64,000 nucleotides of DNA, from contig CAZVHB010000003.1 of assembly GCA_964626965.1 (NCBI GenBank), positions 12,256-76,255 of the forward strand, written 5' to 3'. The position numbers and the translations under genes were made by a program. Below the pieces are notes generated by a model. It had not been told where the DNA came from. It saw only the letters and a list, made by a program, of their open reading frames with translations, and did not search any database. The DNA is from an uncultured Candidatus Saccharibacteria bacterium. GTDB taxonomy: Bacteria > Patescibacteriota > Minisyncoccia > Phycocordibacterales > UBA9973. The number at the start of each line of letters is the position of its first letter. Within the stretch, counting starts at the first letter, position 1. Positions 2,942 through 51,572 of this stretch are shown piece after piece.

Positions 2942-4656
2942 TCGTCACAGAAATATACAAAGGGCAAGGACTCGGGAACCAGCTCTGGTGCTATGTGGTT
3001 ACTCGAGTTATTGCCAAAGATAGAGGCTATACATTTGGAATTAAATCTCCTGAGAAATTTAAGTGTCTTGATTTTATGAATCTCGATTTTGGTGAAAAAG
3101 TCATAGGTGGCAGTGGTCCCGAAGGAGGTTCACCACACACTCTTCCTGATGGAATCACTCATTATTATAATGAAAGAAAACTTGTTTACATGGATGGGAC
3201 AGACATTCGCACATACGATGAAAATCTTTTGAATGTTCCTGATAACACAAAAATAGATGGCATCATGCAGGACGAACAGTATATTATTCACAGAAAAAAC
3301 GAAATACGAGAATGGTTAAAAATAAAAGAAGGATATGAAGTACCAGAATACTCCAATGAAAATACCTGCATTATTAATTTCCGAGGTGGAGAGTATGTAG
3401 GACTCCAAGAAGTGTTCCTCACAAAAAAATACTGGAATGATGCAATTAAACACATGCGAGGGATAAACCCAAGTATGAAATTTGTCGTCGTTACTGACGA
3501 TGTAAAAACTGCAAAAAAATTCTTTCCTCATTTTGAATGTTCTCATAGATCAATCGGGCACGATTATTCCATTATTAATAATGCATATTATCTCATACTC
3601 TCAAATTCGAGCTTTGCCTTCTTCCCTGCTTGGCTTAATACGAGAATAAAAAAAATAATTGCACCAAAATACTGGGCAAGACACAATGTCTCTGATGGGT
3701 ATTGGGCGTGTGACTACAATCTTACCTCACAATGGATGTATTTAGATCGAGATGGGATACTGCATAATTATGATTCATGTAAAAAAGAGCTAGATCAGTA
3801 CAAGAACATACACTCAGATCTATACAAAAAAGTAAAAATAGAAGATACTTTTTTAGTCGTATCTAACTATTACAATGACCTAAGTTGGGTTCCTGAATAC
3901 ACAGATAATTATATTGTGTATGACCAAAGTGATGTGGCAATCTATCCACCAAAACTACATCTAGACAAAATTATTAAAAGCCCACACTTAGGACACAACA
4001 TCCGAGACTACTGTACCTACATTATTGATCATTATGAGAACCTACCAGAACGAGTAGCTTTTGTGACAGGTAATATTTTTCCAAGACACGTCGCGCGAGA
4101 TTGTTTCGACAAACTAGTGAATAATACGTTTTTTACTCCTTTTATCGACCATAGAAAACATCACACAAGGTGGCCAATTTCTTTTATCTCAAAAGATGGA
4201 CTGTACAATGAAATCAACGATAGTTGGTATCTTCATCACCACCCAACAAAATATTTTCATAATTACAATGATTTTCTCCAATTTTGTTTTAAAAAATCTG
4301 AACTACCAAAGTATGTAAAATTTACACCAGGTGCAAATTACATTGTTCCAAAAGAAAATATTTTAAAATTACCTAAAATATTTTACGAGAATTTGAGAGT
4401 ATTTGTCTCTCACTCCCCTACAGTAATCCCAGGTGAGTCACATATTATTGAACGGGCTTTATATACACTCTGGAGTAGTAATTTTGAAATTAACGAAAAT
4501 ATGCTTTCGCCAATAGGAGAAAACTTCAGTGCAAAACCAAGAATAAAAACAGCCTTTGTGTATAGAGCTGTTATGGTGTTAATACATACATTCTGGAATA
4601 CTGTAAATGTAGGCAATAAAGTTATTAATAAAATAAGTCAGAAATTATCTGTATGA
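2938..4656 (+). CDS. GT11-like (alpha-1,2-fucosyltransferase-like) domain fused to a C-terminal ~300-aa domain of unknown function
   Basis: N-terminal 'GQGLGNQLWCY', 'FRGGEYVG' and 'SNSSFAFFPAWL' match the GT11 hallmarks (GGLGNQMFQYA / HxRRGDY / ANSTFSWWAA). ATGA overlap with the upstream gene. Confidence 0.55.
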   Translation: MIVTEIYKGQGLGNQLWCYVVTRVIAKDRGYTFGIKSPEKFKCLDFMNLDFGEKVIGGSGPEGGSPHTLPDGITHYYNERKLVYMDGTDIRTYDENLLNVPDNTKIDGIMQDEQYIIHRKNEIREWLKIKEGYEVPEYSNENTCIINFRGGEYVGLQEVFLTKKYWNDAIKHMRGINPSMKFVVVTDDVKTAKKFFPHFECSHRSIGHDYSIINNAYYLILSNSSFAFFPAWLNTRIKKIIAPKYWARHNVSDGYWACDYNLTSQWMYLDRDGILHNYDSCKKELDQYKNIHSDLYKKVKIEDTFLVVSNYYNDLSWVPEYTDNYIVYDQSDVAIYPPKLHLDKIIKSPHLGHNIRDYCTYIIDHYENLPERVAFVTGNIFPRHVARDCFDKLVNNTFFTPFIDHRKHHTRWPISFISKDGLYNEINDSWYLHHHPTKYFHNYNDFLQFCFKKSELPKYVKFTPGANYIVPKENILKLPKIFYENLRVFVSHSPTVIPGESHIIERALYTLWSSNFEINENMLSPIGENFSAKPRIKTAFVYRAVMVLIHTFWNTVNVGNKVINKISQKLSV

Positions 4657-5576
4657 TGCACAAAATCAAAAACGCACTCTTATCTATTTTTAAAAAAGTA
4701 TCTAAGAGAGAGAAAACAGTAAAAATGTTAACTAAAGAAGAAATAGCTTCCATCCAAAAATATAGACCAACCATAAAAATATATGATATTTTTACTTACA
4801 ACGGTGAAGCTGATGTTTTGGAAATCCGTTTACATATATTAAAAGACGTCGTAGATGAGTTTATTATTGTGGAAGCTCCTACTACCTTCTCTGGGCTACA
4901 CAAGCCATTATATTTCAATGAACAAAAGGACCGCTTTGCTCCATTTTTAGATAAAATAAAATACTTTGTTATAAACGACTACCCAAATGACACAGCATTA
5001 TGCGAACTTGCTGACAGAAGCTCCAATGTACCTAAAGATGGTCCGGAACATTGGAGACGAGAGTTTTACCAAAAAGAAAGTATAAAAAAAGCACTGACTC
5101 ACCTCTCTGATGAAGACATCTGCTTCATTGGTGATGTGGATGAAATATGGAATCCAGAAATCGTCATTGATTATAGAAAAGACAGTATATTTAAATTACA
5201 GCAAGTTGTTTACTCATATTTCTTAAATAACAGATCTTCGGAAAAATGGGCTGGCACGCTCGTCACAAAATACAAAAATATAAAAAATAACTGTTTAAAT
5301 CATTTACGAACTGCAACAAAAACAAAATACCTATACGTAAAAAATGGAGGGTGGCATTTTACGAGTATTGGTGGAATAGATGAAATCCGAAGAAAATTAA
5401 ATGACTCTTACACAAAAGAAAGCTATAATACACAGATAGTGCAAGATAATCTAGAGCAAAGATTTGGTAAACAAGATTACATGGGTAGAAAATTTACATT
5501 CTCTGCTGATGAATCTGACTTACCAAAGTATATATTAGACAATAAAGAAAAATACAAAAAACTATTCAAAGAATAA
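4653..5576 (+). CDS. glycosyltransferase family 17-like (beta-1,4-N-acetylglucosaminyltransferase-like)
   Basis: 'DIFTYNGEADVLEIRLHILKDVVDEFIIVEAPTTFSGLHKPLYF' matches the GT17 pattern F.(F/Y)N.E.D.LE.RL..L...VD.F(V/I).E...TF.G..KPL.F. Confidence 0.5.
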   Translation: MMHKIKNALLSIFKKVSKREKTVKMLTKEEIASIQKYRPTIKIYDIFTYNGEADVLEIRLHILKDVVDEFIIVEAPTTFSGLHKPLYFNEQKDRFAPFLDKIKYFVINDYPNDTALCELADRSSNVPKDGPEHWRREFYQKESIKKALTHLSDEDICFIGDVDEIWNPEIVIDYRKDSIFKLQQVVYSYFLNNRSSEKWAGTLVTKYKNIKNNCLNHLRTATKTKYLYVKNGGWHFTSIGGIDEIRRKLNDSYTKESYNTQIVQDNLEQRFGKQDYMGRKFTFSADESDLPKYILDNKEKYKKLFKE

Positions 5577-5577
5577 A

Positions 5578-6570
5578 ATGAAGAACACTGACCACAAAGA
5601 TATAAATGTTGTTATTCCTGTGTATAACGGGGCGCGTTTTATCGTGGATGCACTTGACTCTGTAGTCCACCAAACACTCGCTCCAGAGAGGATTATTGTT
5701 ATTGATGACGGATCAACAGACAACACACATGAACTCGTTTCAAAATACAAAGAAACTTCACCTGTAGAAATCACGCTCATAAAGAAACAAAACGGTGGAC
5801 TCAGTTCAGCTCGTAATGCGGGAATCAAAGAAAGTACTTCAGAGTTTATTGCATTTTTAGATGCAGATGATACATGGGTAAAAGAAAAGCTCGAGGAACA
5901 AATATACATATACGATAAAACAGAATTTAAAAATCTAGCTTTAGTATATTGTGATTATGATGTCATAGATTCATCTGGAAAAGTAAAATACAAAAATTAC
6001 AAAGCTCCGCTTGATCAAAAGAGAATGCGTGGATCCGTATTTAAAAAACTCATTGAGAGAAACCAAATTGCTTCAAGTGGAAGTGGAGTGCTCATAAAAA
6101 GAGAGATATTTGATACAGTTGGTCTTTTCGATGAAACATTACCTTGGGGTGAAGATTGGGATATGTGGCTCCGAATTGCACAAAAGTTTGAAGTTGATTT
6201 CACCCCAAAAACACTGGTCCATATTCGTAAAAACGAACACAATATGACCGCTAATCCTACAAAAGTTTTTGAAGGTGAAGTACAGTTTTATAATAAGTGG
6301 ATACCACTCGTTGATAAAAAGTACCCTATTCCCTTATTTTGGGCTGATAAAATTACGTTTAGGATTCTACTCAATATCACAAAAAAGAATTTTTTAGTAC
6401 TATTAAAAAATAAACTTTCAGTAGAAAATTACAAAAAATTATTCAGGAAATCATTTGGATCTCTGTATCTATACATTCCTCTGTTTTTTATACGCCAAAT
6501 TTTCAATATACTTTTTTACCCAAAGTATCTACAAATAGCGACAAAATTCATAAAAAACAAAGGAGTATAA
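5578..6570 (+). CDS. glycosyltransferase family 2
   Basis: 'INVVIPVYNGARFIVDALDSVVHQT...IIVIDDGSTDNT' and 'AFLDADD' DxD motif. Confidence 0.75.
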   Translation: MKNTDHKDINVVIPVYNGARFIVDALDSVVHQTLAPERIIVIDDGSTDNTHELVSKYKETSPVEITLIKKQNGGLSSARNAGIKESTSEFIAFLDADDTWVKEKLEEQIYIYDKTEFKNLALVYCDYDVIDSSGKVKYKNYKAPLDQKRMRGSVFKKLIERNQIASSGSGVLIKREIFDTVGLFDETLPWGEDWDMWLRIAQKFEVDFTPKTLVHIRKNEHNMTANPTKVFEGEVQFYNKWIPLVDKKYPIPLFWADKITFRILLNITKKNFLVLLKNKLSVENYKKLFRKSFGSLYLYIPLFFIRQIFNILFYPKYLQIATKFIKNKGV

Positions 6571-13306: not shown

Positions 13307-15337
13307 TTACTTTAGTTTAAAATCAGGAATATCTTTCTGTGCCTGAGCTAAAGCTTCAGTATACAGTTTCTGATCTCCAATAATCTCTGCAAATTGAACC
13401 AGAAGTCGATGCGAAGACGCAAAGGTCGGATCAATGGCAATACCCTCCTTATAAGCATTTTCTGCTGATTTTAAGTCCCCTTTCCAGACATAGATCTGTG
13501 CCATACTCCAGTGCACATTTGGATTTGTTGGTGATAATTTTTTTGCTTTATTGAGTACCATTAGAACGTGATCAAACATCTCAGGATTTGCACTCATCTC
13601 ATTCAGATATAATAATGTTCCGTATAAATGTGCAATAGTAATTGATAAACGATAATCAGTTGGGTTACGAACAGAGACTTCTTCAAGATAATTAATCAAA
13701 CCAGTTAAATCCTCAACAACATACGGGAGGAGTTTTGTGTCGTTTTTGAATTGTGCTGGATTAGCTGAGTATTTTTTATACAGATCATCAGCAAGCCCTC
13801 CAACATCCCAAGCTTCACCAACAGAAGAACCAGAAAGAAGATCTTTGTACGCTTCTGCTCTTTTATTAATCGGCATAACAAATATCTCTGCATACGCTCC
13901 TGATTTAGATACAGGCATCTTTACAAAAAAGATAAGACAAGCAACACAGGCAAGACCGAGAAAACCGACAAGAAATACATCGTACTCTGAATCCGTGTAC
14001 CTCTTTTTCAGTGGAACTGTTTGACCATCATCACCATACAAGCTGTACAGTATTCCTGTAATCATAAAAAGTGCTGTAAGAGATAGGTTTGAATCAAATG
14101 TCATTAAGTTATTTACAATATAGGCGACAAGAAGTCCTACAAAAATAGAAACTTGAATCTTTGTGAGTACACCTTTTTTGTGTAAATGCAACAATACATA
14201 AAACAAACTACCCAAAAAGAGAGCATATAAAATAATGAGCGGATATCCACCAGACACACCAAGATCATAATATTGATTGTGAGCACGATCCGCCCAACCT
14301 TCATAGCTATTCTCTACTCGGAGGATTTTTGGATTGAAATTCTCTTGAAATGCAATTTGATAATTTTCTGGACCGTACCCAAGAACAGGATTTTTATCTA
14401 TTGCTTTTTGTGCAACATCCCAAAAAATAAATCGACTTCCTCGAGCTTGTTCTGCAAATTTGTTATGTAAGGTTGTATTTGGAGTAACTAATTGTACCCA
14501 TAAAAACCCAGAAACGAGTACTGCTATGGTCGCAATACCAACACTCAATCCCCTGATACTTTTCTTGGAAGAAAGAAACATATAACCAACGACGCTTGCT
14601 CCAATACCACTGATAATTGCTAGTATTGTTCCTCGAGCAGTACCAAGAATACTTCCATCAGAAAAAAGGCGGTACAGACTCGCAAAAACTGGCGAGAATA
14701 TAATAATGGCCATAGTACTGTAAATAAATAATTTTTTAGTTTTACTTATATTTTTACTACAGAGAAGAAACAAAGATACAGCCAGCGTAAACAAAAAATA
14801 ACCGGCAGCAAGTGTTGAGTTACCCGCAAACCCTCCCCCAGCATCTGTTTTTAACACAGTAAAAGGTAAATGAAAGCCATCAACACCCATCCATACACTG
14901 AGAGCCAAGAGAGAAGACCCGGCAATAAAATACTGAAACAACGAAGTAACATACGTCATTCCAGATTTCTTAACAAGCGAGGCAGTAACGAGAGCAAAAG
15001 CAAAGACATGATAAAAAGTCAAAAGCCCTGTGCCCCGCCCAAGAGAAGACCAGAAAGCGAGATTGGGATTTACTGCATAGATTGTTGCAAGTGTCATCCA
15101 GGTTAAAACTACAGAAGGTATTGCAAACATAAGAAGTGTTTTCTTTGAAAGACGATACTGTCGATCCTTAAAAGCAACATAGAGCCATAAGAAAAAGAGA
15201 ATTTCAACCACCCCATACATAAAAAATGTTTTTGATGAGATATGCGGAAATAGCCCACGACTCCAAAAAATGACCGGCATCAAAAGCACTAAAGTAAAAG
15301 AGAGGTATTCAAGCATGTTTTCTTTGAATGTATTCAT
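13307..15337 (-). CDS. O-antigen ligase/Wzy_C-family polytopic membrane protein with C-terminal TPR repeats (paralogue of 11222-13264)
   Basis: Same architecture as its neighbour ('ARGTILAIISGIGASVVGY', C-terminal TPR: 'AENAYKEGIAIDP'). Confidence 0.6.
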   Translation of the reverse strand: MNTFKENMLEYLSFTLVLLMPVIFWSRGLFPHISSKTFFMYGVVEILFFLWLYVAFKDRQYRLSKKTLLMFAIPSVVLTWMTLATIYAVNPNLAFWSSLGRGTGLLTFYHVFAFALVTASLVKKSGMTYVTSLFQYFIAGSSLLALSVWMGVDGFHLPFTVLKTDAGGGFAGNSTLAAGYFLFTLAVSLFLLCSKNISKTKKLFIYSTMAIIIFSPVFASLYRLFSDGSILGTARGTILAIISGIGASVVGYMFLSSKKSIRGLSVGIATIAVLVSGFLWVQLVTPNTTLHNKFAEQARGSRFIFWDVAQKAIDKNPVLGYGPENYQIAFQENFNPKILRVENSYEGWADRAHNQYYDLGVSGGYPLIILYALFLGSLFYVLLHLHKKGVLTKIQVSIFVGLLVAYIVNNLMTFDSNLSLTALFMITGILYSLYGDDGQTVPLKKRYTDSEYDVFLVGFLGLACVACLIFFVKMPVSKSGAYAEIFVMPINKRAEAYKDLLSGSSVGEAWDVGGLADDLYKKYSANPAQFKNDTKLLPYVVEDLTGLINYLEEVSVRNPTDYRLSITIAHLYGTLLYLNEMSANPEMFDHVLMVLNKAKKLSPTNPNVHWSMAQIYVWKGDLKSAENAYKEGIAIDPTFASSHRLLVQFAEIIGDQKLYTEALAQAQKDIPDFKLK

Positions 15338-15358
15338 ACGCCGATTATATCAAAAAAT

Positions 15359-15489
15359 CCCCACACCTACCAAACCATTATTTCAATATGTTTTAACTAC
15401 TCATAAAAGGTAACCATTGGTACATACATTTATGTCTCTACACAATGTGTATTTGAAATCAAAAACACGATGGTTTGGTAGGTGTGGGG
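15359..15489 (+). repeat. ~131-bp element bounded by perfect 20-bp terminal inverted repeats (copy 1 of 2; MITE-like or structured ncRNA)
   Basis: CCCCACACCTACCAAACCAT at 15359-15378 and its exact reverse complement at 15470-15489. The second copy at 30991-31128 has conserved internal ends and a compensatory change. Confidence 0.55.
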
Positions 15490-15495
15490 AAAAAC

Positions 15496-23105: not shown

Positions 23106-23165
23106 AATAAAAAGAATTCCTAATTAAAAATTTCTAATTTCTAATTAAAACAAAGCAAAAATACA

Positions 23166-23199
23166 AAAAGCAATGCGACCATAGGTCGCATTGCTTTTT
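23166..23199. terminator. bidirectional terminator between convergent recA and pilB
   Basis: AAAAAGCAATGCGACC-ATA-GGTCGCATTGCTTTTT. Confidence 0.75.
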
Positions 23200-23244
23200 G
23201 TATTTTAATTAGAAATTAGTTATTAGAAATTCTTAATTCTATGT

Positions 23245-30198: not shown

Positions 30199-30885
30199 TT
30201 ATTTGTTTGACATTTCTCTTGAAACTTTATCCAAAAGACGTGAAGCATGTTCCTTTCCACCGAGTCCAAGTGCAAGACCTCCACCGAGTGCGAGCATCAA
30301 GACGAGTCCAGTGAATAGTGTACCAAAGAGTTCACGTCCAATACCGAGTTGAGAAAGAGCAACCATAAATGCAAATATCCAGATAGAATATTTTGCAACA
30401 GTTGCGAACATCATTGAGTGACGTCCAGCATCTACTGATTTTGCTCCGACAGTAACGATACCAGAAACAAAGTTAGATACATACGCTGCTGCGATAAGAA
30501 CGATACTTGCAACGGCTACTTTTGGAAGAAAGCCAGTGATAAGTGTTACAAGAATAGCATTTAAATCACTGAGACCAATGATATTAAGTGTTACAACGAG
30601 TCCAACAATAATCACAAACCATCTAACAATCCATCCTAGAAATGAAGATGCAGAAAAACTTACACCTGCCTTTCTTGAAAGATCATCAAGACCAACACTG
30701 TCGAGTAGACGATCAAGCTTAATAGTAACGAAAAGCTCTTTTACAGCTCTTCCTAAGAGTGACCCAAGTACCCATGCGAGTACAAAAACGAGAAGCGCGA
30801 CTATCAGATTTGGCACAAAATTTGCAAATCCGAGCCATACGTTTTGAAGAGATGAGGTGAATACCTCTGCCCAGCTTTGATTCAT
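30199..30885 (-). CDS. membrane protein with conserved TM-helix repeats (MscS-N-terminal-like TM_helix family)
   Basis: Repeated 'P.LI.AL.V..L' helices; 228 aa. Confidence 0.4.
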   Translation of the reverse strand: MNQSWAEVFTSSLQNVWLGFANFVPNLIVALLVFVLAWVLGSLLGRAVKELFVTIKLDRLLDSVGLDDLSRKAGVSFSASSFLGWIVRWFVIIVGLVVTLNIIGLSDLNAILVTLITGFLPKVAVASIVLIAAAYVSNFVSGIVTVGAKSVDAGRHSMMFATVAKYSIWIFAFMVALSQLGIGRELFGTLFTGLVLMLALGGGLALGLGGKEHASRLLDKVSREMSNK

Positions 30886-30990
30886 ATTATATTATATTAA
30901 TTATTAATTTGAAACTTTATGCCGACGCACAAAGGTCTCTAGACTAAGTATATCAATTTTAAGAAAAGAAGTAACTAATCTGTGGAAAAC

Positions 30991-31128
30991 CCCCACACCT
31001 ATCCTGCCATTATTCCAAAGTGTTTTAGTTCAATAAGGAGAAAAAAGAGATGCGCGATGCAGACAAGTGATCTATTTCAAAAATGTACTGTTGGAATACA
31101 AAAACACAATGGCAGGATAGGTGTCGGG
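30991..31128 (+). repeat. ~138-bp inverted-repeat-bounded element (copy 2 of 2)
   Basis: CCCCACACCTATCCTGCCAT at 30991-31010, reverse complement at 31109-31128 (one mismatch); inner TATTCCAA/TTGGAATA shows a compensatory change versus copy 1. Confidence 0.55.
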
Positions 31129-31196
31129 AGAAAAGTCCAGTACTAGTTTTTAGTGCGGAGTTTTTAGTTTATAGAGAAAACAGAGCACAAACATAC

Positions 31197-31240
31197 AACA
31201 GCAGGGCGACCAAAGGTCGCCCTGCTGTTGTGTTTTCTAT
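31197..31240. terminator. bidirectional terminator
   Basis: CAGCAGGGCGACC-AAA-GGTCGCCCTGCTG + TTGTGTTTT. Confidence 0.7.
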
Positions 31241-31269: not shown

Positions 31270-31890
31270 TTAGTACGTCATCTGGGGAATTTTTGAGAGA
31301 ACGTTTTTATCAACAATCCTAATGTGAGAGAAATCAACGACATCCCTGATAAGTTTATCGTACATATGTGCTCGATAGAGAAAATCCGGTGTTTCAAATG
31401 AAGCGTAGGTTAATTCCCTACCAATTTCTGATTCGAGCTTTCGTATAACTTCTTCAATTTTCTGTTTCTTGAGTTTTTTACCAACAATAAGAAGATCAAT
31501 ACGTGTATTTGAATCAGGAATAAAAAAACCAGTTGCAATAAGTAATTCGACTGACCCTACCCCATTAAATCGTTTTTTTAAAGACTCAGCGGTATTTTCG
31601 CTCTTTGGAGACAAAATAGAATAAAGTTCATTCTTAAACATACACTTAGGATTAAGTGTATAAATAACAACAACTTTCTTTGCATTACGAACTGTCTTGA
31701 TTGTTTTATTTTGTTTTTTAACAAGTGTTGATGATAAAAGCCAGATAAGATCTCTTTTAACTATATCTTTCTTGATTTTTGTTTTCTTTGCGATTTCTTC
31801 GACAGTAAAAGGCACTTCAGGGTGCATCAAAAAAAGCCTCATGACTTTGATTCTCTGTATTGAGCCAAATAGTTTCCCTAATATTTCCAT
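31270..31890 (-). CDS. hypothetical protein with N-terminal winged-helix DNA-binding domain
   Basis: 'RIKVMRLFLMHPEVPFTVEEIAKKTKIKKDIVKRDLIWL'. I placed the start at the ATG (MEILGK); the ORF track used an upstream TTG. Confidence 0.45.
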   Translation of the reverse strand: MEILGKLFGSIQRIKVMRLFLMHPEVPFTVEEIAKKTKIKKDIVKRDLIWLLSSTLVKKQNKTIKTVRNAKKVVVIYTLNPKCMFKNELYSILSPKSENTAESLKKRFNGVGSVELLIATGFFIPDSNTRIDLLIVGKKLKKQKIEEVIRKLESEIGRELTYASFETPDFLYRAHMYDKLIRDVVDFSHIRIVDKNVLSKIPQMTY

Positions 31891-31928
31891 TTCTATAGTA
31901 TACAACAAAAAAATCTGTGCAACAATAC

Positions 31929-47269: not shown

Positions 47270-47361
47270 AAATCAAACAGACGCAAAGGGCTATCGAAAG
47301 ATGGCTTTTTTTATTACCATCTCCACAATTATAAAAACCTCTTACGAGGTTTTTATAATTG

Positions 47362-47750
47362 TGGAGATGGCGGGTTTCGAGCCCGCGTCTAGAAAAGCTC
47401 GCACTATAGGTCTACGTGTGTAGAGTATTTTTTGATTTAACTGTCTATATTCTAAAATAATCAAAATACATAGAGAGCGAGACGAGATTATTTTAAGTAG
47501 TCAGACTCATCACCTCTGACTACCGAGTGAAAGTGTATAAGACCCAATCTCTTCCCTTTCAACCTAAAAGAGGTGAGTCAACGCTCGGCTTATATACTAA
47601 GCAAGAGCGAAAGCAAAGTTCATCTCACTTGCGTAAGGTGACTCTACTGAACCATTTGCGTTTGCATTTGGGTTTTGCATACAGATTACGAGTACATGCT
47701 TCTCGACACGCGTATAGTGTTTGCCAATCTGGCGAAACAAATACATCCCC
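47362..47750 (-). ncRNA. ssrA: transfer-messenger RNA (tmRNA, ssrA), ~389 nt, with candidate tag reading frame at 47597-47632
   Basis: Minus-strand 3' end AGACGCGGGCUCGAAACCCGCCAUCUCCA aligns with the E. coli tmRNA 3' end GGACGCGGGUUCAACUCCCGCCAGCUCCA(CCA). The 5' end GGGGAUG pairs with CAUCUCC, giving a 7-bp acceptor stem with a G3-U wobble. Internal reading frame GCA AGU GAG AUG AAC UUU GCU UUC GCU CUU GCU UAG (A-S-E-M-N-F-A-F-A-L-A-stop) resembles ANDENYALAA tags. smpB lies 560 bp away. Confidence 0.65.
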
Positions 47751-51365: not shown

Positions 51366-51572
51366 ACGCGCCAAGTATACTATACTATCTTTATTTTTCG
51401 ACACTCTACCCTTTGACCACAAGCGGGCGAAGCCCGCACACCCCTCCCCCTCAAGCGACACAAAAATACGCTTATTATGTTGTCTGGCCTCGTCTCGAGG
51501 AGAACCGAGGACAACATAATGAGCATATTTTTGTGTCGCGATCTTTTTTTGACATTTTCCCAGAAAAAAGCT

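Follow-up and report, generated by a model that had tools for sequence, protein, structure and literature searches.

The Ssn proteins are single-domain GIY-YIG enzymes of ≈94 amino acids (aa) that bind and cut single-stranded DNA, but not double-stranded DNA or RNA, and their cutting adjoins hairpin repeats that occur both on either side of the ssn gene and at dispersed genomic sites (PMC11893778). The repeat–gene–repeat layout was likened to that of an insertion sequence, although mobility was not demonstrated (Chenal et al. 2025, Nat Commun; PMC11893778). In Neisseria, SsnA and the NTS repeats modulate natural transformation; Patescibacteria are not mentioned in that paper (PMC11893778). Here, we describe an inverted-repeat element at positions 30990–31129 of a 64,000-nt stretch of contig CAZVHB010000003.1 from an uncultured Candidatus Saccharibacteria bacterium. 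The whole 64-kb stretch is referred to below as the window, and the element as copy 2, to distinguish it from a related copy 1 in the same window. Copy 2 is probably a non-autonomous, gene-less member of a mobile family that is associated with GIY-YIG genes and widespread in Patescibacteria (class Paceibacteria and relatives), and it resembles a MITE (miniature inverted-repeat transposable element).

The family shares several properties with the Ssn/NTS/SRM system. Both have a single-domain GIY-YIG protein of ≈85–95 aa, the gene for which is bracketed by inverted-repeat DNA, and in both the repeats are multi-copy, scattered in intergenic regions, and made up of a conserved stem and a freely varying part. 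However, the Ssn repeats are compact hairpins of 20–50 nt on each side of the gene, whereas the arms of the present family are the ends of a 133–320-bp unit and lie 95–260 nt apart. The family also differs in its 4-bp target duplications, its gene-less derivatives of fixed size, and its Patescibacteria hosts. The SRM/NTS motif ATTCCC-N8-GGGAAT was not found in the window, and the sequence is unrelated to that of the Ssn repeats.

Other repeat systems offer partial parallels. As in the REP/REPIN-RAYT system, hairpin-forming repeat doublets with compensating changes in their stems occur in intergenic DNA and have as their partner a single small gene, for a nuclease or transposase, with the repeats on both sides of it. 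However, RAYT is an HUH Y1 transposase of the IS200/IS605 type, whereas the gene in the present family is GIY-YIG, and REPINs have a GTAG head and no target-site duplications, in contrast to the 12-bp conserved end and 4-bp duplication described here. Classical MITEs (Correia/NEMIS, ERIC, RUP) are likewise intergenic and multi-copy; they measure 100–170 bp, end in inverted repeats, duplicate a short stretch of target, and can donate promoter parts or long hairpins. Their repeats, however, are conserved in sequence over the full length, and their parents encode DDE transposases, whereas in the present family one half of every repeat is hypervariable, with compensation between the arms, and GIY-YIG is the sole partner gene. 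The attC sites of integrons (57–141 bp, active when folded from a single strand) are likewise recognized by their structure and not their sequence, with conserved outer boxes and a variable, self-complementary inner part. An attC reading was rejected, since the GTTRRRY/RYYYAAC boxes, an integrase and cassette arrays are missing, and the elements have target duplications and housekeeping neighbours. No prior description among Patescibacteria or prokaryotic MITEs was found in the literature, which was searched with the exclusion of one possibly relevant 2026 preprint. The kind of element is already known, but the present variant appears to be undescribed.

The first-pass annotation of the window had placed a second inverted-repeat copy at 30991–31128, and the sequences that it quoted matched exactly on re-reading. 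In an inverted-repeat search, the arms of copy 2 (30991–31011 and 31108–31128) were 21 nt long, 95% complementary and spaced by 96 nt, with a single mismatch in the stem, a C:C at stem position 4 (CCCC vs CGGG). Family-wide, the next base pair outward is usually complementary as well, either C/G or T/A (94/107 copies), which places the true ends one base beyond the arms, at 30990 and 31129, and gives an element of 140 bp. In copy 2 itself this outermost position is a C:A mismatch. The element ends are CCCCACACCTA / TAGGTGTGGGG. The terminal 11-mer CCCCACACCTA, allowing up to one mismatch, occurs four times in 64 kb, corresponding to the four arms of copies 1 and 2; 0.26 occurrences would be expected by chance, and none of 100 shuffles reached four. 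No third copy was found in the window by relaxed half-site, interior-motif or generic inverted-repeat searches. Both copies are small (140 and 133 bp), with an unconserved interior and no conserved open reading frame (ORF). Copy 2 folds far better than its shuffled counterparts (z = −6.4 as RNA and −6.4 to −6.8 as single-stranded DNA), and the values for the two copies together range from −6.3 to −6.9 as RNA and from −6.3 to −8.1 as single-stranded DNA.

The two copies have the same orientation, as had been noted, which is supported by the asymmetry of their interiors. The earlier description of arms with a common outer 11 nt and a distal 9 nt that differ yet pair also holds: the inner 9 nt differ at four positions between copy 1 and copy 2, and all four differences are compensated. 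Inside the arms, a second stem, P2, likewise differs in a compensated way (ATTTCAA/TTGAAAT vs TATTCCAA/TTGGAATA), while the 3′-side bulge CAAAAACAC is kept in both copies, in agreement with the inner stem and bulge previously described as shared. Copies 1 and 2 belong to a sub-family of seven, and in six of these P2 is preserved through compensated changes.

Copies of the element were sought with the pattern CCCCACACCTA-N95-125-TAGGTGTNGGG across one genome per bacterial and archaeal species, giving at least 118 loci. Nearly all are in metagenome-assembled genomes (MAGs) of Patescibacteria, including Nomura-, Kaiser-, Yonath-, Wolfe-, Lipton- and Vogelbacteria, Paceibacterota and similar groups. 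There are several copies per genome, with up to 12 per MAG among the matches listed, compared to two in the 64-kb window. A few matches (L008, L031, L034 and L078) fell on contigs labelled Actinomyces, Gammaproteobacteria, Planctomycetaceae or Deltaproteobacteria, some without the extended stem (L008); either chance or the mis-binning of Patescibacteria contigs may account for them. The viral contig collection, searched for signs of phage carriage, contained no match to the family.

In the 108 copies compared, the length has its mode at 131–132 nt, and the stem comprises 19–20 bp, of which the outer 12 bp, (C/T)CCCCACACCTA, are conserved across the family. Stem positions 12–19, by contrast, are hypervariable, with 95 distinct 9-mers among the 108 copies, yet ≈90% of them are Watson–Crick paired with their mirror positions. 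Pairing drops abruptly to background at positions 20–21, and the sequence outside the stem is free to vary across the family. Among the 105 distinct sequences, each of positions 12–19 displays all four Watson–Crick pair types, with 40–61 double changes. None of 500 shuffles reached the observed covariation, and the signal was lost when the partner was slid by one to three columns. The proposal that pairing rather than sequence is preserved, made from the two window copies alone, is therefore strengthened by the family: the covariation, the loss of which upon adding copies would have spoken against it, persists. The variable stems are nearly all different even within one MAG (e.g., 11 distinct stems in 12 copies), so that a separate protein for each variant is implausible.

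One locus, L066:1170–1610, contains a tandem array of three units spaced by GTAAAC, two of which are identical and have the variant ends CCCCTACACCTTTCAGGG...CCCTGAAAGGTGTGGGG. The adjoining right and left arms in this array form a compact hairpin, GGTGTGGGGG-TAAA-CCCCCTACACC. In arrays, adjacent units form GGTGTGGGG-N6-CCCCACACC hairpins; a CRISPR-like reading was nevertheless rejected, as most copies are solitary and carry duplications.

Covariation of this strength, with an RNA folding z of −6.4 and a P2 stem and bulge conserved within the sub-family, is what might be expected of a structured non-coding RNA, as the first-pass annotation had implied: either a gene for a small RNA or a leader or trailer with a cis-regulatory role, in each case with a long closing helix, its plus-strand transcript being stopped by a terminator downstream. 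We looked for the signature of RNA pairing in the exceptions. The non-Watson–Crick cells of the stem comprised 24 G:T, 28 A:C and 26 other combinations, and orienting the copies, be it by the asymmetry of each copy or by the strand of adjacent genes, left the balance unchanged; on the sense strand of the flanking genes, there were 13 G:T and 12 A:C mismatches. A functional RNA helix tolerates G:U far better than A:C. Since G:T is here as rare as A:C, on either strand, the constraint on the stem is not RNA-like. Nor does the orientation of the element follow that of its neighbouring genes. Relative to co-directional flanking genes, 23 copies point the same way and 24 the opposite way. Almost all copies (101/108) are intergenic, and all four gene arrangements are occupied; those with a called gene on both sides include 47 in tandem, 18 divergent and 17 convergent contexts. 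Searches of both window copies against Rfam 15 gave nothing at the gathering threshold and matches at chance level at permissive thresholds.

The terminator that had been reported after the element bears on the same question. The hairpin with its T-rich tail, 65 nt downstream, is real (31193–31233), but it scores as a terminator on both strands. It lies 30–40 nt past the stop codon of the minus-strand gene 31270–31908; from this position and the score on both strands, the hairpin is probably the terminator of that gene and not a part of the element. Copy 2 is flanked by two minus-strand genes, with a promoter-like site for the next one, 30199–30885, between that gene and copy 2. The element thus sits in the spacer between the terminator of the upstream gene and the promoter-like site of the following one. 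Moreover, 18 family members lie between divergent genes, where a terminator is not expected. Together with the target-site duplications, the presence/absence polymorphism, and the occurrence of the same ends around a protein gene elsewhere (see below), these observations make the structured RNA highly improbable. The pairing constraint acts on DNA, and the element is not an RNA gene.

The duplications are one indication of mobility. An exact 4-bp direct repeat flanks 63 of the 107 copies, against 7.6 on average and never more than 13 with shuffled flanks, and 79 of the 107 have a repeat with at most one mismatch. The consensus of the duplication is TNNA, with TTTA, TCAA, TAAA, TTGA and CAAG as the commonest forms. 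A flush duplication of 2–8 bp was considered and rejected; the 4-bp repeat is found one base further out.

We also compared orthologous sites. Homologues of the channel gene next to copy 2, at 96, 87, 79 and 77% protein identity, led to five syntenic loci that share the order L10, L12, a variable insert, a gene of 205–212 aa, and the channel gene. The element is missing between the same two genes in all five syntenic relatives. A block shared without change by the six sequences (GTTTTCCACAG...) starts exactly where copy 2 ends, and the megablast match of the window to the closest relative, L119, goes no further than window position 30990. As for copy 2 itself, its nearest relative, which has an identical variable stem, TCCTGCCAT, is found at an unrelated locus in a related MAG. 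The invariant block was noted in its own right: upstream of the mechanosensitive-channel-like gene, 30886–30989 (minus strand) is highly conserved in six genomes over a range of 77–96% protein identity. It includes GTTTTCCACAG and a small palindrome, ACTTTGTGCGTCGGCATAAAGT, and may serve as promoter, operator or leader structure. Between rplL and the 205–212-aa gene, the relatives have a variable insertion point (L120:789–1394, L122:1077–1611, L124:566–1573), where the inserts include a short reverse-transcriptase ORF, a BrnT/BrnA-like toxin–antitoxin pair, and an AI-2E transporter gene.

Insertion is not confined to spacers between genes. At locus L074, two copies (5205–5337 and 6079–6211) lie inside a 23S rRNA gene (3753–6466, minus strand), at variable helices, and the same gene also contains group I introns. 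The element is absent from these sites in L048, L050, L052, L088 and L106, which have short unrelated hairpins there instead, among them a 56-nt CCCCCCCACCACT...AGTGGTGGGGG hairpin at one of the sites in L048. The two insertions, as self-contained hairpins of ≈133 nt at variable helices, resemble the intervening sequences of 23S rRNA, but this likeness is limited to some copies, and those in the window are intergenic. The family displays several features by which MITEs are recognized, namely terminal inverted repeats, a target-site duplication, a small gene-less unit, dispersed copies, and presence/absence polymorphism.

Dispersed hairpins might nevertheless be retained because they serve the host. 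Under such an explanation, which is compatible with a mobile origin, the repeat would act like REP or NTS sequences, as the target of an Ssn-like nuclease that curbs the recombination of single-stranded DNA entering the cell, as a transcription insulator, or as a hairpin at mRNA ends. Patescibacteria are thought to depend on DNA uptake. Both window copies adjoin terminators, and copy 1 contributes a −35-like TTGGTA that, with a TG-TATAAT, precedes the gene 13307–15337. The precedent is the modulation of transformation by NTS repeats and SsnA in Neisseria (PMC11893778). However, the copies are not kept at orthologous sites, they have no preference for any context, and the sequence outside the stem varies freely. 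All of these objections are compatible with an incidental or population-level effect, but as an account of what the element is, we consider a host-retained function unlikely.

In clusters of copies, the same ends were also seen on longer units of 285–320 bp, in which a single ORF encodes a single-domain GIY-YIG nuclease of ≈85 aa. All six full-length GIY-YIG ORFs that tblastn of the loci detected near copies were bracketed by inverted repeats of ≈20 bp in the same style. These ORFs are 84–90 aa long and match Pfam PF01541 alone (E = 2e-16 to 2e-17), and the expected Tyr, Arg, His, Asn and Glu positions do not vary. Across the related loci, the proteins are 84–95 aa long; their closest solved relatives are the UPF0213 proteins 1zg2 and 1ywl. 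A plasmid search found distant YazA-like proteins only.

To avoid circularity, metagenomes were searched with the protein only, which gave 582 relatives, from which 80 loci were kept, 76 of them evaluable. An inverted repeat brackets the ORF in 67 of these 76. About 55 of the protein-selected units, with lengths of 282–330 bp, begin with CCCC(C)ACACC, CCCCTCAC or CCCCCCACCAC, and flanking 4-bp repeats are found in 13–20 of 55 units, compared to 1.4–2.7 expected. The ORF starts 0–25 nt past the left repeat, typically with ATGTTTTAY, and its stop codon is often the TAG of TAGGTGTGGGG, within the right repeat, so that the element is filled by its gene. Similarity between the proteins goes with repeat class, and none of 1000 permutations reached the observed difference. 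Over ≈200 loci, GIY-YIG was the only ORF found between such ends, which are exclusively associated with GIY-YIG genes. At L029, a gene-less copy adjoins a GIY-YIG unit with the same variable stem on comparable arms. Just inside their ends, the window copies carry an RTGTTTTW motif that resembles the start of the ORF and may be a relic of it; the corresponding GTGTTTTA in copy 2 (Table 1) is possibly what is left of an ATGTTTTAY start. Homing of the nuclease gene into a pre-existing MITE was considered and rejected, as the ORF spans from repeat to repeat and leaves no MITE interior. Four GIY-YIG units with CCCCTCAC ends (L155, L156, L164 and L177) have longer flanking repeats of 7–8 bp (GCCTATAG, CCGCTAG, CTCGTAG, CCTATAG), which suggests a different stagger or a specific ...TAG target in the CCCCTCAC-ended sub-family.

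The pairing constraint agrees with a hairpin in the DNA of a mobile element, one with target-site duplications and presence/absence polymorphism. We favour the following scheme, parts of which draw on analogy. The two ends of the element, once in single-stranded form, would pair as a stem of 20 bp. The conserved base of this stem would be recognized by a GIY-YIG nuclease acting in trans, while the rest would need only to be paired, and the nuclease would act on the folded ends much as Ssn nucleases act on their own hairpin repeats. Only copies with an intact stem would be propagated, and the variable part would thereby stay complementary. Insertion duplicates 4 bp of the target, preferably TNNA. 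Direct observation covers the anatomy of the element, the covariation of the stem, the DNA-like nature of the pairing constraint, the target duplications, the empty orthologous sites and the exclusive occurrence of these ends with GIY-YIG genes. We infer that the nuclease is the mobilising enzyme and the single-stranded hairpin the active form, and that the insertion chemistry is one that yields the 4-bp duplication.

A number of points weigh against this scheme and against the mobile, GIY-YIG-associated element on which it is built. The duplication at copy 2 is imperfect, AAAA/GAAA (3/4), and a clean excision would not account for all the differences at the orthologous "empty" sites. In the pattern-based sample, the outer 11 nt are fixed partly as a product of the search pattern, the motif being confirmed independently, though with variants, by the protein-selected sample. 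The strict Watson–Crick pairing could result from repair or copying between the arms instead of selection. The nucleases resemble Ssn by protein type and layout, their membership in cd10448 and their cutting of single strands being putative. The remaining points would equally suit an ordinary MITE whose transposase, of the conventional DDE type, is encoded elsewhere, some copies carrying the GIY-YIG gene as a passenger. Several families of DDE insertion sequences typically make 4-bp duplications; GIY-YIG nucleases are not known to catalyse strand transfer or to join DNA, so that a separate transposase or host repair may take part; and no GIY-YIG gene was found within the window by regular-expression or tblastn searches, so that a cognate nuclease in this organism is putative.

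Against a passenger, however, stands the fact that GIY-YIG is the sole ORF found between such ends across ≈200 loci, filling the unit from repeat to repeat with its stop codon inside the repeat, which leaves no backbone for a passenger to ride on. The class of repeat also co-varies with the protein, and half of each repeat is free as long as it is complementary, unlike the protein-bound ends of transposons. A DDE-driven MITE with an incidental nuclease gene is thus quite unlikely, and a member of a GIY-YIG-associated mobile family remains the probable identity of the element at 30990–31129. Its features are listed in Table 1 together with those of copy 1 and the neighbouring hairpin.

Table 1. 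Features of copy 2, its flanks and copy 1, in window coordinates.
Feature	Position	Strand	Basis or remark
Target-site duplication, left copy, AAAA	30986–30989		Read from sequence
Left terminal inverted repeat, C + CCCCACACCTA (conserved 12 nt) + TCCTGCCA (variable 8 nt)	30990–31009		Inverted-repeat search and family alignment; pairing in copy 2 extends to 31011
Inner stem P2, 5′ half, TATTCCAA	31011–31018		Pairs with 31091–31098
GTGTTTTA motif, complementary to 3′ bulge	31020–31027		Copy comparison
Variable non-coding interior	31028–31090		Unconserved between copies or across family; short unconserved ORFs only
Inner stem P2, 3′ half, TTGGAATA	31091–31098		Folding and copy comparison
Conserved asymmetric bulge, 3′ side, CAAAAACACA	31099–31108		Common to copy 1 and five other sub-family members
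Right terminal inverted repeat, TGGCAGGA + TAGGTGTCGGG + A	31110–31129		Inverted-repeat search and family alignment
Target-site duplication, right copy, GAAA (3/4 match)	31130–31133		Read from sequence
Neighbouring terminator-like hairpin, G+C-rich with T-rich tail, outside element	31193–31233	−	Terminator score on both strands
Copy 1 (15358–15490, 133 bp; arms within 15359–15489) with perfect AAAA/AAAA duplication (15354–15357, 15491–15494)	15354–15494		21-nt arms, 100% complementary

Copy 1 overlaps a promoter-like site at 15344–15373 on the minus strand. The −35-like TTGGTA is located in the variable part of the copy 1 repeat, and the TG-extended −10, TATAAT, lies just outside the copy, 18 nt from the TTGGTA and 7 nt before the ATG of the O-antigen-ligase-like gene 13307–15337. 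The insertion of copy 1 may therefore supply half a promoter for a near-leaderless mRNA of this gene.

Other inverted repeats in the window include a composite repeat at 23112–23240, rich in TTCTAATT units, with arms of 38 nt that are 79% complementary; it encloses a perfect 23-bp hairpin at 23158–23206. An unrelated inverted repeat at 51455–51539 (GCGACACAAAAATACGC...) has 30-nt arms, 93% complementary, and a 25-nt loop. A perfect 25-bp hairpin at 47317–47370 overlaps the 3′ end of the tmRNA gene (47359–47750, minus strand) and is probably the tmRNA terminator.

The analysis links a dispersed repeat of Patescibacteria to the recently discovered Ssn-type GIY-YIG single-strand nucleases. The mobility of a repeat–gene–repeat unit and its gene-less derivatives, which was only hypothesised in the Ssn work, here gains evidence from sequence, in that targets are duplicated, orthologous sites are empty and some copies are inserted in 23S rRNA. 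The ends, half conserved and half free but paired, amount to a natural mutagenesis experiment that separates the part of the hairpin read as sequence from the part read as structure only, a division that is useful for engineering programmable cutters of single-stranded DNA. There is also a caution for the discovery of RNA motifs, in that the DNA hairpin of a mobile element can give very strong covariation; the balance of G:U and A:C and the orientation statistics separate such a hairpin from the RNA case. More tentatively, the 285–320-bp relatives could be the smallest self-contained transposable elements known from bacteria, composed of two 20-bp ends and an ≈85-aa nuclease gene that overlaps its own right end, and moved via a nuclease-recognized single-stranded hairpin by a mechanism so far undescribed. 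If this somewhat doubtful possibility were true, the element in the window would be one of many gene-less riders of these units, and Ssn-type GIY-YIG proteins would be the engine of a new class of mobile elements that insert even into the rRNA genes of ultra-small bacteria.

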